Shown piece by piece: positions 2 to 39,644 of a DNA stretch of 39,644 bases. The stretch lies in the IMG/VR virus record IMGVR_UViG_2718218133_000003. One strand, given 5' to 3'. Position 1 is the stretch's first letter. Each line of letters begins with the position of its first letter. The DNA is from a virus (taxonomy: Duplodnaviria > Heunggongvirae > Uroviricota > Caudoviricetes). The notes under the pieces were generated by a model. It was not told the origin of the DNA and ran no database searches. It saw only the letters and a list, made by a program, of their open reading frames with translations. Both the position numbers and the translations under genes were made by a program.

Positions 2-1297
2 TTAATTTTTTATTGCTTCGTTATGGGGCATGGTTGGGGCAAACTCGCTTAACTGTGTATTTAACAAAGCTACCTGTGCATTATTGTTTTCAGACATCCA
101 TTTTCCGTATACCTGAAATACCATTTGCGCATCTGCATGGCCCATCTGGTTTGCTATAAATGCCGGGTTAGCACCAGCTGTCAGCGACCAGCAGGCATAA
201 GTATGTCTCGACTGATATGATTTTCGATGGCGGAGTCCGGCACGTTTTATCGCTGCGTCCCACATCTGCCTTATTGAGTCAACGGTAAAATGGTCACCAT
301 AATTTTTTACTCTCGCTGACACTTCAGGTTGAAAAACAAAGGTGCATTTATGTTTTTCTGTTCTGCCATACTCTCTGAGGTGAACATCAATGATATGCTC
401 TTTGCTCAGTCTCGTTAATGTCATCTGACTCCGGAGAGCGTCGATTGCTGGCTTAATAAGATGAATGACCCGATTGGTTCCCGCCTGTGTTTTTGGTACC
501 GTGAAACGGTCTTTTGCTAAATTTCTCCTGATCATCATTGTTCCATTTTTCAGATCTATGTCCTCCCATCCAAGTGCACACAGCTCACCAGGGCGAACGC
601 CAGTATAAACAGAAACACACCATAAATTTTTGGCTTGCTGATTTCTGCACGCATCGATAAGACGGATGAATTCCTCCCGCGAAAGAGGATCCGGAATGGT
701 TCTTGATTCCTTTAATGGCGAGATCCCCTTAAACGGGTTATCTGCCAGGTAACCGTTATCAACACCAAACTGGAACACGGCGTTAAGATTTGTCATGTAA
801 TTATTTACAGTTACAGCCGATCTCCCTGGTTGTGTAACAATATAGTTACTTTTGGGGATCTGGTATCCAGTCAGTAGCTCTTTACGAACCTCCAGTAATT
901 TTTCTTTATTAATCGATGAGGCAAGATTTTTTTCACCGATTATGCTCAGGATATTTTTGATGACGGCACGGTATGTGTTGAGTGATGTTTTTGCGACTTC
1001 AGTTTCTTTCAGTGCCAGAAATTTTTCAGCCAGTTCTTTTATGGTTAAATCTTGTCGGGTCTCACCAAATTTTTCCAGATTGCGTGAGGAGGGAAACTGT
1101 TTTGCATAGTCGAAAACACCAGTTTTTATTGCGTAACAAACAGAGGCGCGTAGCTCACCTGCAACGCGCCTGTTTTTTGCTGTGTCAGGAACCCCCAGGT
1201 TTTCCCTGACTCTTACGCCTTTATAAACAAACCAGATACGTAATTTCCCTCCATGGTTTTCCACGCCTGTCGGATATTTCATTTCAATTTCTCTCAT
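2..1297 (-). CDS. int: Phage integrase, tyrosine recombinase family
   Basis: 431-aa ORF at prophage end, transcribed toward the end as in lambda; C-terminal R..H..R..Y-type catalytic region (HTYACWSL...QMGHADAQMVFQVYGKW). Confidence 0.9.
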   Translation of the reverse strand: MREIEMKYPTGVENHGGKLRIWFVYKGVRVRENLGVPDTAKNRRVAGELRASVCYAIKTGVFDYAKQFPSSRNLEKFGETRQDLTIKELAEKFLALKETEVAKTSLNTYRAVIKNILSIIGEKNLASSINKEKLLEVRKELLTGYQIPKSNYIVTQPGRSAVTVNNYMTNLNAVFQFGVDNGYLADNPFKGISPLKESRTIPDPLSREEFIRLIDACRNQQAKNLWCVSVYTGVRPGELCALGWEDIDLKNGTMMIRRNLAKDRFTVPKTQAGTNRVIHLIKPAIDALRSQMTLTRLSKEHIIDVHLREYGRTEKHKCTFVFQPEVSARVKNYGDHFTVDSIRQMWDAAIKRAGLRHRKSYQSRHTYACWSLTAGANPAFIANQMGHADAQMVFQVYGKWMSENNNAQVALLNTQLSEFAPTMPHNEAIKN

Positions 1298-4750: not shown

Positions 4751-4808
4751 AAAAAGGGCGGCAGAGCAGTCACGGAGTAAAACTGATACCGCCAAACGTC
4801 ACCAGAAA
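4751..4808 (-). ncRNA. dicF: DicF small RNA (ftsZ-targeting) with intrinsic terminator
   Basis: Reverse complement reads UUUCUGGUGACGUUUGGCGGUAUCAGUUUUACUCCGUGACUGCUCUGCCGCCC followed by a U-tract; recognised from memory as DicF. Confidence 0.8.
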
Positions 4809-6097: not shown

Positions 6098-6517
6098 TTA
6101 AGAGGCTTTTTGTTTTTTCTTTCGTGCTAACTCTTCGTAAATTGCATTGTACTTCTGTTTTTTCTCTTCAAGAGTTTTTAAAAGTTCATCTGTCTCACTG
6201 TCAGGGAGCTCGTCCAGAAGGTCAATGATGATTTTTTGTCTTGGATTTAACTCCTGATAGAAACGTACCTGTCCACTTTCTTCTGTATCCTCTCCCAAAA
6301 GATAGGTTGGTGTTGTTCCTATTAGTGTTGCTAATTCCCTTAATTTCTCCCGGCGAGGAATTGTTTCGCCATTAAACCATTTGCTAACCGCTTTTGGTGT
6401 TAATTTCATTCGACGGGCAATTTCTGCCTGCCTTCCATGTTGTTCATAACCAGCGTTTTCACAGGCTAGCGCAAGCCTACTGGCGAACTCTTTACGCGCT
6501 TTATCTTCATGAACCAT
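6098..6517 (-). CDS. Prophage repressor, HTH XRE family (cI/DicA position), no LexA-like S24 domain
   Basis: 139-aa ORF with helix-turn-helix (QAEIARRMKLTPKAVSKWFNGETIP); divergent from Cro-like gene; apparently leaderless start (no Shine-Dalgarno). Confidence 0.8.
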   Translation of the reverse strand: MVHEDKARKEFASRLALACENAGYEQHGRQAEIARRMKLTPKAVSKWFNGETIPRREKLRELATLIGTTPTYLLGEDTEESGQVRFYQELNPRQKIIIDLLDELPDSETDELLKTLEEKKQKYNAIYEELARKKKQKAS

Positions 6518-6540
6518 AAGTTCAATGATATTCGCTCTTG

Positions 6541-6573
6541 AATGTACTGTCAGTTCTGTTATAGCATGTACTC
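6541..6573. promoter_or_regulatory. Operator-like repeats (OR-type) in the divergent repressor/cro intergenic region
   Basis: AATGTACT at 6541..6548 and ATGTACT at 6567..6573 between the divergent genes. Confidence 0.45.
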
Positions 6574-10620: not shown

Positions 10621-11490
10621 TCAGATATCTTCATACTGTACGTAAGAAATATTTGAGCCTCTGATACCATAATCTTCTAAACTGCCTGATTTTTTCTCAC
10701 CTCTATATAAAGCAACTATCCATCGAGCATTTTCTTGGATGCTTTTATTTATTTCAGTAAAGTATTCACCGTCAACTTCGGCGAGCGAGTGGCCTAAAAC
10801 GATGACCTCGTCCACATTTTTAAGCGATGAGAAAAAAACGTTTTCTTCTTTAATTATGTCTTCGCTGGGCTTGAATGTATTACCGAAGTATTCGTTTATT
10901 CTGTCGTATGCCTCTGCTATTCTTGTATCTTGATCCGGTCCTATATATGGATTTAGTGACTTTTCCACCCTAAAACTATGACCAAGTATGAGATCGTCAT
11001 CGTAACTACAATTGCCGTGAATATGTATGATTTGCTCGTCTGGAACGGCATAGATCTGCTGCAAGGTATTTGTATAATTAAATGAAAAATAGATGCTTTC
11101 TCTTGGTATGGGCGGGATGTATTGCTTAGGATTGTAAGCATCGGCTATGTTAATCCCTTTAACCCAATCAGCGAATTGCTCCTTCAAACGAGCTGACAGC
11201 ATTTGTGTGATTTTATTTACTTCATATTGGTAATCGTGATGATAAGCATCGCTCCAATCATCGGTATTGTATGAAGCCAAAAATATCTCACTGTTTTGAA
11301 GGATAAGCTCATAATCAATTTCACCTAAAGCATTTTCTAACTCATTCCACTCGTCCCCAGCAGGAATGTATTCTTCTATCGCGTCATATAGATCTTGGTC
11401 ATTTTTTTCTACATACGACTTAAAGTGCTTGTATCCTGTTGGTAAGCCATGACGCATGTCAAATCCATTTCCTATTATGTAAAGCCTCAT
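10621..11490 (-). CDS. AbiH-like abortive-infection family protein (candidate defence component)
   Basis: Start MRLYIIGNGFDMRHGLPTGYKHF matches the IIGNGFD..HGL N-terminal signature recalled for AbiH (Pfam PF14253); AAGGGA Shine-Dalgarno; AT-rich. Confidence 0.6.
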   Translation of the reverse strand: MRLYIIGNGFDMRHGLPTGYKHFKSYVEKNDQDLYDAIEEYIPAGDEWNELENALGEIDYELILQNSEIFLASYNTDDWSDAYHHDYQYEVNKITQMLSARLKEQFADWVKGINIADAYNPKQYIPPIPRESIYFSFNYTNTLQQIYAVPDEQIIHIHGNCSYDDDLILGHSFRVEKSLNPYIGPDQDTRIAEAYDRINEYFGNTFKPSEDIIKEENVFFSSLKNVDEVIVLGHSLAEVDGEYFTEINKSIQENARWIVALYRGEKKSGSLEDYGIRGSNISYVQYEDI

Positions 11491-12105
11491 TGTTTTTCCC
11501 TTAGTCGAATTGTATAAAAATACTAACATGGCCTGCTCCACGTTGACTACTATCCCCTCCTTTGAGTAATGCCTTCATCAGATGTAACAACATTTGCGAG
11601 CTTCCACAGTTCGCTCAAAGCGGACTAGAAGGTTAGCTTGCGTCGGACTTGGCGTATTTAAAGAAGTGCTGGTGGAGACTGGTTGTTGTGTTCCATTTCT
11701 ACAGAACAAAATCACAGAAACTATACCCAATAGTTATATTGAATCAATGATGAGACAGCCTCATATTTATCAGGACTGGTGTACGTCCAATACAGGAGGT
11801 TGTCGTGCTGGTTCTCAAATGTGCGCTAGCTATTGCGGCTGTAATGGCAATTTATTGTCTTGCTGTTGTTCTTACGGATCGCCTTTCTGATTGATTTTAT
11901 ATTGGCGAGGTGACGTGAGTTAAGTAGAATTGCTGCGGGTGCTTGAGGCTATCTGCCTCAGGCATGAACACCAAAGGCAGATAGAGAAAAGCCCCAGTTA
12001 ACATTACGCGTCCTGCAAGACGCTTAACATTAATCTGAGGCCAATTTCATGCTAGACACATGTAGGTTAGCCTCTTACGTGCCGAAAGGCAAGGAGAAGC
12101 AGGCT

Positions 12106-12261
12106 ATGAAGCAGCAAAAGGCGATGTTAATCGCCCTGATCGTCATCTGTTTAACCGTCATAGTGACGGCACTGGTAACGAGGAAAGACCTCTGCGAGGT
12201 ACGAATCCGAACCGGCCAGACGGAGGTCGCTGTCTTCACAGCTTACGAACCTGAGGAGTAA
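12106..12261 (+). CDS. hokD: Hok/Gef family type I toxin (HokD/RelF-like)
   Basis: 51-aa product MKQQKAMLIALIVICLTVIVTALVTRKDLCEVRIRTGQTEVAVFTAYEPEE; in-frame upstream extension to 12049 gives a 70-aa mok-like frame. Confidence 0.9.
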   Translation: MKQQKAMLIALIVICLTVIVTALVTRKDLCEVRIRTGQTEVAVFTAYEPEE

Positions 12262-14061: not shown

Positions 14062-14436
14062 ATGCTCATAGATTTGGTTTTACCTTACCCGCCGACGGTG
14101 AACACTTACTGGCGACGCCGTGGCAGCACATATTTTATCTCGGAGGAGGGAAAGCGTTATCGCCGGGCTGTGGCGCTTATTGTTCGCCAGCAGCGGCTGA
14201 AATTAAGCCTGTCCGGAAGGCTGGCGATAAAGGTGATTGCAGAGCCACCGGATAAGCGTCGTCGCGACCTGGACAATATCCTGAAAGCACCGCTGGATGC
14301 GCTGACGCATGCGGGAGTGTTAATGGACGATGAGCAGTTTGATGAAATCAATATCGTTCGTGGTCAGCCAGTATCTGGTGGACGTCTGGGGGTGAAGATT
14401 TACCCCATAATGCATGAAGAGCAGGTCAAAAAATGA
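14062..14436 (+). CDS. rusA: Holliday junction resolvase RusA
   Basis: 124-aa ORF; LPYPPTVNTYWRRRG N-terminus and DLDNILKAPLDAL motif typical of RusA; nin-region position upstream of Q. Confidence 0.85.
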   Translation: MLIDLVLPYPPTVNTYWRRRGSTYFISEEGKRYRRAVALIVRQQRLKLSLSGRLAIKVIAEPPDKRRRDLDNILKAPLDALTHAGVLMDDEQFDEINIVRGQPVSGGRLGVKIYPIMHEEQVKK

Positions 14437-15254
14437 AACTGGAAGATTTACCGAAATACTACTCCCCAAAATCCCCTTGCCTGACCGATGCATCGGCCTC
14501 AACGTCAAAAGATGCGCTGAGTATCACTGATGTGATGGCCGCGCAGGGCATGACACAGAATCGGGCTGAGATGGGGTTTTCTGCGTTCCTGGGGAAAATG
14601 GGCATCAGTATGAATGACAGGGCGCGGGCAACAGAATTACTGGCAGATTATGCACTCAGTCGGTGCGATCGTGTGGCGGCGTTGAGAAAACTTCCGGCAG
14701 AAATAAAACCGGTAGTGATGCGCATTATGGCTTCGTACGCTTTTGAGGATTATGCCCGCAGCGCAGCGAGTAAAAAGCAGTGCCCTTGTTGCTATGGGGA
14801 AAAATTTATTGAAAGCGTAGTTTTTACAAACAAGGTCCAGTATCCGGATGGTAAGCCGCCGGTATGGGCAAAGTGTACGAAAGGTGTGTATCCGTCTTAC
14901 TGGGAAGAATGGAAAAAAGTCAGGGAAGTGGTAAAAGTTGCCTGTCCGGAGTGTGGCGGAAAGGGTGAGGTTTCCACCGCCTGTAAGGATTGCCGTGGGC
15001 GTGGTGTCGCCATTCACCGTGAAGAGTCGGTAAAACGTGGTATGCCTGTTATCAGAGACTGCCAGCGTTGTGGTGGTCGTGGCTATGAAAGACTACCATC
15101 AACGGAGGCATTTAATGCTATATGCGAGGTGACAAACCAGATAACACGCGCGTCATGGGAAAAAACAGTTAAGAAATTCTATGATGCGCTGGTGACCCGG
15201 TTTGATATTGAAGAAGCATGGGCTGAGCGGCAGTTAAAAAAGGTAACTAGGTAA
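14433..15254 (+). CDS. Q: Late gene antiterminator Q (phage 82/21-like, zinc-binding)
   Basis: 273-aa ORF with CPCCYG...CPECGGKG...CKDCRGRG...CQRCGGRG zinc-finger-like motifs; immediately upstream of a pR'-like promoter. Confidence 0.8.
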   Translation: MKLEDLPKYYSPKSPCLTDASASTSKDALSITDVMAAQGMTQNRAEMGFSAFLGKMGISMNDRARATELLADYALSRCDRVAALRKLPAEIKPVVMRIMASYAFEDYARSAASKKQCPCCYGEKFIESVVFTNKVQYPDGKPPVWAKCTKGVYPSYWEEWKKVREVVKVACPECGGKGEVSTACKDCRGRGVAIHREESVKRGMPVIRDCQRCGGRGYERLPSTEAFNAICEVTNQITRASWEKTVKKFYDALVTRFDIEEAWAERQLKKVTR

Positions 15255-15259
15255 CAAGG

Positions 15260-15298
15260 TTGATTTTTCCGGAATCTGTGGTAAATTCGTCATAATGA
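15260..15298 (+). promoter_or_regulatory. Late promoter pR' (-35 TTGATT, 16-bp spacer, -10 TAAATT) with predicted start near 15298
   Basis: TTGATT at 15260..15265, TAAATT at 15282..15287, then ...ATGGGC, closely resembling lambda pR' (TTGACT ... TAAATT ... ATGGG). Confidence 0.65.
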
Positions 15299-15334: not shown

Positions 15335-15360
15335 AACCCGCCGCCGAGCGGGTTTTTTAT
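15335..15360 (+). terminator. tR'-like intrinsic terminator (Q antitermination target)
   Basis: Hairpin AACCCGC-cgccga-GCGGGTT followed by TTTTTT, about 40-60 nt downstream of the pR' start. Confidence 0.65.
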
Positions 15361-15397: not shown

Positions 15398-15473
15398 GGC
15401 CCTTTAGCTCAGTGGTGAGAGCGAGCGACTCATAATCGCCAGGTCGCTGGTTCAAATCCAGTACAGCGCGCCA
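15398..15473 (+). tRNA. tRNA-like sequence (ileX/ileZ-like, anticodon CAU) with non-complementary acceptor stem; probable pseudo-tRNA
   Basis: D-arm GCTC-AGTGGTGA-GAGC, anticodon loop CTCATAA, T-arm GCTGG-TTCAAAT-CCAG and 3' CCA are present, but 5' GGCCCTT cannot pair with 3' ACAGCGC. Confidence 0.5.
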
Positions 15474-15937: not shown

Positions 15938-16411
15938 ATACATATCTGGATTATCACCTGTTACGGTAAAAAGTTATTGCTTACTGTTTTTGTGAATGGC
16001 ATTGCAGCAGCCGGATAATGTCAGTGCTGGCTGACGGTGTGCTGGTGGCGGGTGTGGTGGTTATTGCTTTCCCGTTGCTGAAAAAGAAAACGCCAGACTG
16101 TTAGCCGGGTATCAGTTAGCGGGAGAAATTTTTAAATACTTCACAATTCAGGCGGTTGACTGTTGTCTGGTTTGCGGGGAGTTTGTTAAAAGAAACTGGC
16201 ATGGTGAATCCCCCTGTGCGGAGGGGCAATCAGCGAGTAGGTATATGGGATAATCGCGGATTCAGGTGCTGGTACTGAATTCACCGGGAGGCACCCGGCA
16301 CCATGCACTTCAATAGATTCTCTCCACATTATGGATATTCTTTCAGAATATCCCACGCAGACTTTGTGTAAATGTTAACAAATGTGCGTTTTATTTGATC
16401 TGATTCGCTGT

Positions 16412-38360: not shown

Positions 38361-39644
38361 ATGGATTTCCAGTTATATTCGCTCGGCGCAGCGTTAGTGT
38401 TTCATGAAATATTTTTTCCTGAATCATCAACGGCAATGGCGTTAATTCTGGCAATGGGAACCTACGGTGCAGGTTATGTGGCGCGTATTGTCGGAGCATT
38501 TATTTTCGGCAAAATGGGCGACAGAATAGGGCGTAAAAAAGTACTCTTTATTACCATCACCATGATGGGGATCTGTACCACCTTAATTGGTGTGTTACCG
38601 ACCTATGCACAGATTGGTGTTTTTGCACCCATCTTGCTGGTGACGCTGCGTATTATTCAGGGATTGGGTGCAGGTGCGGAAATTTCCGGTGCCGGTACGA
38701 TGCTGGCGGAATATGCGCCAAAAGGTAAGCGCGGAATTATCTCCTCATTTGTTGCTATGGGGACTAACTGCGGAACCTTGAGCGCAACGGCAATCTGGGC
38801 CTTTATGTTCTTCATTCTCAGTAAAGAGGAACTGTTGGCGTGGGGATGGCGTATACCGTTCCTGGCGAGCGTTGTCGTGATGGTCTTTGCTATCTGGTTG
38901 CGTATGAATCTGAAAGAAAGCCCGGTCTTTGAGAAGGTTAACGACAGCAATCAACCGACAGCAAAACCTGCACCTGCTGGTAGCATGTTCCAGAGCAAAT
39001 CCTTCTGGCTGGCAACAGGGCTGCGTTTTGGTCAGGCTGGTAACTCAGGTTTAATTCAGACTTTCCTTGCAGGCTATTTAGTGCAGACGTTATTGTTTAA
39101 CAAAGCAATTCCAACAGATGCATTGATGATCAGTTCGATTCTCGGCTTTATGACCATTCCGTTCCTTGGTTGGTTATCCGATAAAATAGGTCGCCGGATC
39201 CCGTATATTATTATGAATACCTCTGCGATTGTGCTGGCGTGGCCAATGCTTTCTATCATCGTAGATAAAAGCTATGCCCCGAGCACCATTATGGTTGCAC
39301 TGATTGTGATTCATAACTGTGCGGTGCTGGGATTATTTGCTCTGGAAAACATTACCATGGCAGAAATGTTCGGCTGTAAAAACCGCTTTACCCGGATGGC
39401 TATTTCTAAAGAAATTGGTGGTCTTATCGCTTCCGGTTTTGGTCCTATCCTGGCGGGTATTTTCTGCACCATGACGGAATCCTGGTATCCGATCGCCATT
39501 ATGATCATGGCATATTCAGTGATTGGTTTAATCTCTGCGCTGAAAATGCCAGAAGTGAAAGACCGTGATTTAAGTGCACTGGAAGATGCCGCGGAAGATC
39601 AACCGCGTGTTGTAACAGCAGCGCAACCTTCAAGAAGTCTGTAA
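38361..39644 (+). pseudogene. ydfJ: MFS transporter (metabolite:H+ symporter family, ydfJ-like), missing about 40 N-terminal codons
   Basis: Homology to ShiA/ProP-type transporters begins at the very first codons (LGAALVFHEIFFPES...); an in-frame stop lies immediately upstream and no upstream frame encodes the missing segment. Confidence 0.75.

Follow-up and report, generated by a model that had tools for sequence, protein, structure and literature searches.

How does a stretch with three well-formed tRNA arms, a CAU anticodon and an encoded CCA end come to possess acceptor strands that do not pair, and could its transcript still serve as a tRNA? The question is raised by an element in the late region of a prophage, which lies within the window, i.e., the whole stretch of 39,644 nucleotides that was analysed.

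Setting, arms and acceptor strands

The window holds a Qin-like lambdoid prophage with ydfJ (38361-39644) adjoining one end and the integrase gene (2-1297, minus strand) at the other. From that end the gene order runs integrase, exonuclease, dicB/DicF, immunity and replication, abiH, hokD/sok, DUF968, RusA, Q and the element, which is followed on its 3' side by the DUF3927 gene, tolA-like fragments, lysis genes, terminase, J, tail-fibre genes and ydfJ. The features leading up to the element are the following:

14433..15254, plus strand: late antiterminator Q gene (Pfam PF03589 Antiterm, E = 6e-55)
15260..15287, plus strand: candidate PR'-like late promoter, recognised by eye on weak evidence (TTGATT, 16-nt spacer, TGgTAAATT)
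15335..15360, plus strand: candidate tR', a terminator-like hairpin plus T-run (stem AACCCGC/GCGGGTT, 7 pairs, then TTTTTATT)
15398..15473, plus strand: the tRNA-like element, which reads GGCCCTTTAGCTCAGTGGTGAGAGCGAGCGACTCATAATCGCCAGGTCGCTGGTTCAAATCCAGTACAGCGCGCCA

The Q gene is labelled 'antitermination protein' by PGAP in near-identical genomes. The promoter candidate, which we take to resemble lambda PR' (-10 TAAATT), matches 8/12 positions, and a consensus scan gave no call for it. The candidate tR' lies 38 nt upstream of the element; with the Q gene ending at 15254 and the hairpin and T-run at 15335-15360, the placement of the element directly after tR' in the original prediction is plausible, and its remark on tRNA genes carried at this position by Stx and other lambdoid phages was right. 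Three small RNAs were also seen in the window: DicF (4756-4807, minus strand, 76.7 bits) and the sok antitoxin RNA of hokD (11937-12111, plus strand, 119.9 bits), both expected of a Qin-like prophage, and STnc100 (16170-16360, plus strand, Rfam 114 bits), which lies ~700 bp 3' of the element, overlaps in antisense orientation a pseudogene that PGAP calls 'hypothetical protein', and recurs downstream of the tRNA array in every relative examined.

Laid out as GGCCCTT-TA-GCTC...GAGC-G-AGCGA-CTCATAA-TCGCC-AGGTC-GCTGG-TTCAAAT-CCAGT-ACAGCGC-G-CCA, the element has a paired D stem (GCUC/GAGC), a paired anticodon stem with the loop CUCAUAA, and a paired T arm (GCUGG/CCAGU) containing a single G49.U65 wobble, while an A27.C43 mismatch is inherited from ileZ. 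The anticodon CAT (15431-15433) sits in an ileX-like body, as in tRNA-Ile2, and the arms are accompanied, as in a canonical tRNA, by an encoded 3' CCA (15471-15473). The discriminator is G73, which derives from argO, in place of the A73 of tRNA-Ile2.

The acceptor strands depart from this pattern. In the canonical register, GGCCCUU against ACAGCGC offers only G1-C72, C4-G69 and U7-A66, three isolated pairs out of seven. Moving the 5' strand by one base (+1 register) yields 5/7 pairs with two mismatches (G-C, C-G, C.C, C-G, U-A, U.C, U-A) and uses up U8, leaving a single connector nucleotide before the D stem; in neither register does the element show a canonical tRNA's seven acceptor base pairs on top of the T arm together with its 2-nt connector (U8, N9). 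The calculated cloverleaf energies are -9.2 kcal/mol with the canonical acceptor, -13.8 kcal/mol in the +1 register and -14.5 kcal/mol for the three arms alone; that of intact ileZ is -29.0 kcal/mol. Neither acceptor register is thus predicted to beat the three-arm core in stability, and by these models a stable acceptor helix cannot form. When the arms were enforced, the best end-pairing took G73-C74-C75 and thereby sequestered the CCA end, and in the free minimum free energy fold the pairing probability of nt 4-7 was below 0.3. Reading, pairing and folding all bear out the description from which we started, namely canonical D, anticodon (CAU) and T arms next to an acceptor that cannot pair.

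Parent genes of the two ends

A 401-bp query around the element found both of its flanks matched in 807 complete E. coli genomes, most of which returned two match pieces spanning ~578 bp, with 'tRNA-Ile' and 'tRNA-Arg' annotated between Q and DUF3927. In close Qin-like prophages the intact array, ileZ-(argN)-argO, is flanked by the Q antiterminator gene on one side and the DUF3927 gene on the other, and we aligned three such loci, L001 (NZ_CP054662), L003 (NZ_CM151390) and L010 (NZ_CP073996, flanks 99.4% identical). Against L001 and L010, 177 bp are missing from the window, and against L003 the gap is 174 bp; the element resolves into three parts:

15398..15454, plus strand: ileZ-derived part, identical to ileZ of L001, L003 and L010
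15455..15461, plus strand: crossover interval, the heptamer AATCCAG common to the ileZ and argO T arms
15462..15473, plus strand: argO-derived part (tRNA-Arg UCU), identical to the argO 3' end, with its trailer, in L001

The first part spans the 5' acceptor strand, the D arm, the anticodon arm, the variable loop, the 5' T stem and the T loop as far as A57, and the last comprises the final T-stem base, the 3' acceptor strand ACAGCGC, the discriminator G and CCA, with the argO trailer going on downstream. The crossover is bounded by an ileZ-type A at 15454 and an argO-type T at 15462, and the BLAST pieces overlap within this interval. The two parental T arms, CTGGTTC-A-AATCCAG-C in ileZ and CTGGTTC-G-AATCCAG-T in argO, provide diagnostic sites, of which G49 and A57 in the element are of the ileZ type and T65 is of the argO type; the junction stretch reads …GGTTCAAATCCAGTACAGCGCG…. 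Nucleotides 1 to 57 equal ileZ exactly, and everything from nucleotide 65 onward, including at least 60 nt of trailer 3' of the junction, equals argO exactly. The 3' strand of the element is an orphan because ACAGCGC is argO's own 3' acceptor strand, which in L001 pairs with the argO 5' strand GCGUUGU.

The two halves correspond to parent genes that are neighbours in the relatives, the window has lost what lies between these, and both parents share the sequence in which the crossover falls, so the chimeric origin can be read directly from the alignment. We conclude with high confidence that the element is a pseudo-tRNA made by a deletion that fused the front of ileZ to the tail of argO. The alignment to ileZ and phage relatives had been proposed as a check in the original prediction, and it assigned the 5' part to ileZ and the 3' part to argO; the first ~65 nt, which had been likened to an ileX-type tRNA, proved to be 64 nt identical to phage ileZ (tRNA-Ile2 CAU). 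Of the two origins then suggested, a decayed tRNA, in the sense of piled-up point mutations, is wrong and was rejected, because both halves are exact copies of their parent genes, whereas a recombination scar holds in the broad sense of an internal 177-bp deletion between the array's own ileZ and argO, not in the narrower sense of integration at a tRNA target.

That narrower sense, a scar of site-specific integration or excision left as an att remnant at a tRNA gene, drew on the frequent use of tRNA genes as integration targets and on a 3' end unlike the 5' part, as would be found in an attL/attR hybrid. The flanks, however, are collinear with those of the intact-array relatives and contain no insertion, the prophage has its integrase at 2-1297 and its other end against ydfJ, and the 3' piece is the exact end of the neighbouring argO, which in the relatives lies 177 bp away. 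With no junction to foreign DNA and with collinear flanks, the integration scar was rejected, and we regard it as highly improbable. The deletion endpoints do lie in a short repeat, as they would if an assembler had collapsed the T-arm repeat, but this repeat is ~15 nt long, far under read length, and the same junction recurs in 42 independent complete assemblies and 3 IMG/VR contigs, always on one distinct flank haplotype; the chance of an assembly artefact is negligible.

The history of the element is best reconstructed as follows: (i) the ancestor was a Qin-like lambdoid prophage with the late-region array ileZ (Ile2 CAU), argN and argO (Arg UCU) downstream of Q, PR' and tR'; (ii) one 177-bp deletion joined the near-identical T arms CTGGTTC[A/G]AATCCAG, with the crossover within the 7-nt AATCCAG, most likely by RecA-independent slipped mispairing or short-homology recombination, two routes that leave the same sequence; (iii) the product carries the ileZ body (D, anticodon and T arms) and the 3' acceptor strand, G73 and CCA of argO, and its acceptor strands do not pair because they come from different genes; (iv) the molecule cannot form the coaxial helix of acceptor and T arm that is recognised by RNase P, TilS, IleRS and MetRS and in maturation of the CCA end; and (v) the deletion destroyed all tRNA genes of the array, either three or, if argN had already decayed as in L001 and L010, two, leaving a scar that is almost certainly inert and is passed on passively with the prophage. 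Efficient recombination by RecA requires far more homology than 7-15 nt.

The same array also displays another mode of tRNA decay. In L001 (1732-1811) and L010 (~6482-6561), the argN between ileZ and argO has a scrambled anticodon arm and T loop, but both acceptor strands and the 3' T stem are preserved; ARAGORN and Rfam both miss argN there.

Gene-finder calls and decoding capacity

ARAGORN reported one tRNA in the whole window, a tRNA-Met (CAT) at 15399-15473. The Rfam tRNA model (Infernal) matched 15399-15470 with 47.2 bits (gathering threshold, 29 bits; E = 3.6e-7), which, together with the identity of the first 64 nt to phage ileZ, places the element far above chance; the alignment flags non-canonical acceptor pairs and requires a one-base deletion in the 5' strand. 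The score compares with 72.5 bits for ileZ and 68.0 bits for argO. PGAP/tRNAscan-SE, in a near-identical genome, called tRNA-Met at 15403-15473, leaving off the first five nucleotides. Since PGAP types intact ileZ as tRNA-Ile and the chimera as a 5'-truncated tRNA-Met, the Ile2 signature has been lost. The name 'tRNA-Met' is the default label of PGAP and ARAGORN for an untyped CAU tRNA, and the anticodon alone fits it, the intact acceptor stem and A73 of a tRNA-Met being absent. ARAGORN, Infernal and PGAP find no valid paired acceptor at other boundaries, and the original prediction of an unpairable stem stands.

Several observations speak against the pseudogene reading, namely, that three gene finders call a tRNA, that five of seven pairs form in the +1 register and that CCA is encoded. 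These would be expected of a functional, if odd, tRNA (Met or Ile2) with a shifted, two-mismatch acceptor, as would the boundaries of the ARAGORN call, an Rfam score above the threshold and the PGAP annotation of carriers as tRNA-Met without a pseudogene flag. Such a tRNA would, however, gain nothing from the shifted helix (-13.8 versus -14.5 kcal/mol without it), which consumes U8 and leaves one connector nucleotide; its Rfam score is ~25 bits under those of the parent genes; and the identity of its halves to two genes implies that no adaptation followed the fusion. It also carries G73 instead of A73, which is an identity element for IleRS and the identity base of Ile and Met tRNAs alike. For E. 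coli TilS the 4:69 and 5:68 pairs are major identity elements, and C4:G69 together with C5:G68 lets the enzyme tell tRNA-Ile2 from tRNA-Met (PMC11947777). The 5:68 determinant is broken in the element, being C.A, and 4:69 (C-G) stands alone, as the helix around it does not form. These grounds make a functional odd tRNA improbable.

For the ileZ/argO pseudo-tRNA, loss of function is inferred from the structure and the published identity rules, by which the element is almost certainly non-functional. The chimeric transcript would be a poor substrate for RNase P and 3' maturation, its most likely fate would be degradation, and the prophage would thereby be left without decoders of AUA and of AGA/AGG (and CGA).

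Distribution, recurrence and known relatives

A search of 5426 complete E. coli genomes for the exact 40-nt junction found it in 42, once in each and always on the chromosome; in all 40 records listed of these 42, PGAP names it 'tRNA-Met' and sets no pseudogene flag. It was also found in 3 IMG/VR contigs and had no match in 50,697 GenBank phage records or in the GTDB species representatives. The reciprocal junction (argO 5' end, ileZ 3' end), which would be expected from a duplication by unequal crossing-over, had no match in the 5426 genomes. Carrier strains include 2021CK-00607, ATCC 43896 and APEC O2-211. Seven carriers were compared (the window, L002 and L005-L009), among them human, poultry and beef isolates, and their flanks form a single haplotype (identity of 99.92% or more across 2.6 kb), which differs by ~15-20 SNPs from the nearest intact-array loci, L001 and L010, and by more from L003. 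Because the seven share one flank haplotype, the data fit a single deletion event, with later spread by descent and prophage mosaicism; the carriers' prophages differ in their early modules, which contain either AbiH or an Sll1717-type ATPase. The DUF3927 open reading frame downstream (16018-16104, plus strand, in the window) encodes 28 aa, covering positions 26-53 of the Pfam profile, there and in other carriers of the chimera, and 42-43 aa in the intact-array loci L001, L003 and L010.

The window is 99.99% identical to NZ_CP104665.1 (L011), with two differences. The first is an IS1 in abiH of that genome (L011 11389-12156), at a site where the window (11380-11388) has an uninterrupted abiH (10621-11541, minus strand). 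The second is an 8.36-kb gap at ~26506 of the window, where head and tail genes present in NZ_CP104665.1 (L011 27286-35649) are missing, starting in the 3' part of the capsid-protease fusion gene and extending to minor tail protein L. The prophage of the window is defective because these 8.36 kb of head and tail genes are missing; the prophages of some other carriers, e.g., NZ_CP104665.1, look gene-complete, which means that dead prophages are not the only ones to carry the scar.

A query with a variant junction revealed a second ileZ/argO fusion, GGCCCTTTAGCTCAGTGGTGAGAGCGAGCGACGCATAATCGCCAGGTCGCTGGTTCGAATCCAGTACAACGCGCCA, exemplified by the following locus:

L015 1162-1237, equal to NZ_AP018488.1 1667230-1667305: second ileZ/argO chimera, O157:H7 PV15-279

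Its exact junction occurs in ~163 genomes, mainly of STEC. The second chimera resembles that of the window in its parents, its architecture and its PGAP label (tRNA-Met) and differs from it in the crossover, which, given G57, lies further 5', in CTGGTTC; in the type of argO, which is of the A69 type and has that variant's own trailer; in an added U33G change; and in its upstream neighbour, a DNA methyltransferase gene. ARAGORN made no call on it, and the Rfam tRNA model gave 37.3 bits over model positions 7-64 only. The second chimera is an independent event, and repeated fusion of this kind would be expected if microhomology of the conserved T arms drives the deletions.

Two further observations concern O157:H7 prophages. 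The ileZ at L016 1283-1358 (NZ_CP017251.1, O157:H7 86-24) begins with A instead of G, which turns the first acceptor pair into an A1.C72 mismatch, and scores 66.3 bits in Rfam versus 72.5 in other ileZ copies; argN of the same locus scores 42.9 bits. In the O157:H7 prophage with the second chimera, a match to the AgvB (anti-GcvB) sRNA (L015 1507-1568, minus strand, 96.5 bits) adjoins STnc100; AgvB has no match in the window at the Rfam threshold.

Expression of the chimeric RNA in a non-decoding role, as a decoy for tRNA-modifying enzymes or anticodon nucleases or as a processing signal of the late transcript, would be compatible with its intact anticodon arm, with the place of the element in the late transcription unit, 3' of Q and the candidate tR', and with the two or more origins of array-collapsing chimeras, which persist in ~205 genomes. 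We nevertheless consider such a role very unlikely, as there is no sign of selection, the element being no better conserved than its flanks; the universal U33 is mutated in the second chimera; and the microhomology of the T arms explains the recurrence. Equally slight credence is given to the wider proposal that, owing to this microhomology, the ileZ-argN-argO array in lambdoid prophages of E. coli may be a hot spot for repeated deletion, and that the resulting chimeric RNA may not be inert. Were it true, a Q-dependent late transcript would supply a stable anticodon-arm RNA acting as a decoy or sponge, its targets could include anticodon nucleases of defence systems, TilS and MetRS, and the collapse of the array would gain selective value.

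As a scar of the ileZ/argO deletion, the element reveals no new mechanism, and its significance is mostly practical: (i) ~205 complete E. coli RefSeq genomes (42 plus ~163) carry an ileZ/argO chimera annotated as plain 'tRNA-Met', and such mislabelled chimeras inflate tRNA counts and misstate the decoding capacity of prophages, those of STEC included; (ii) the array is dispensable, as shown by chimera carriers with complete-looking prophages, and the rare-codon tRNA morons of lambdoid prophages are lost through short-homology deletions between the conserved T arms; (iii) the junction provides a clean lineage marker for one haplotype of the Qin-like late region. Our searches of the literature on ileZ/argN/argO and on chimeric prophage tRNA genes returned no description of the element or of its STEC sibling.

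To place the element among known systems, the ileZ-argN-argO array of lambdoid and Stx phages (933W type) occupies the same site, after Q and before the lysis genes, and the 5' 64 nt of the element are identical to ileZ of related Qin-like prophages and ~94% identical, flanks included, to the annotated ileZ of Stx2 phages. Compared with the 933W-type array, the element is one fused gene from which argN, the 3' end of ileZ and the 5' body of argO are gone, with an acceptor stem rendered impossible. The chromosomal tRNA-Ile2 of E. coli (ileX/ileY), the lysidine-dependent decoder of AUA, is alike in its CAU anticodon and ileX-like arms, whereas the element has no acceptor helix in which TilS could find 4:69 and 5:68, carries G73, not A73, and is given 'tRNA-Met' by default by the annotator. 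Hybrid tRNA genes formed by recombination between neighbours are a known kind of event, the classic cases being the tandem tyrT recombinants of E. coli. A chimeric tRNA gene has also been described at a rearrangement junction in Rickettsia peacockii (PMC2791219). The element belongs to the same class of event, in that the crossover lies in a conserved part and the interval is lost; however, its parents come from different families (Ile2 and Arg), which makes the hybrid structurally incompatible, whereas recombinants of near-identical copies stay functional.
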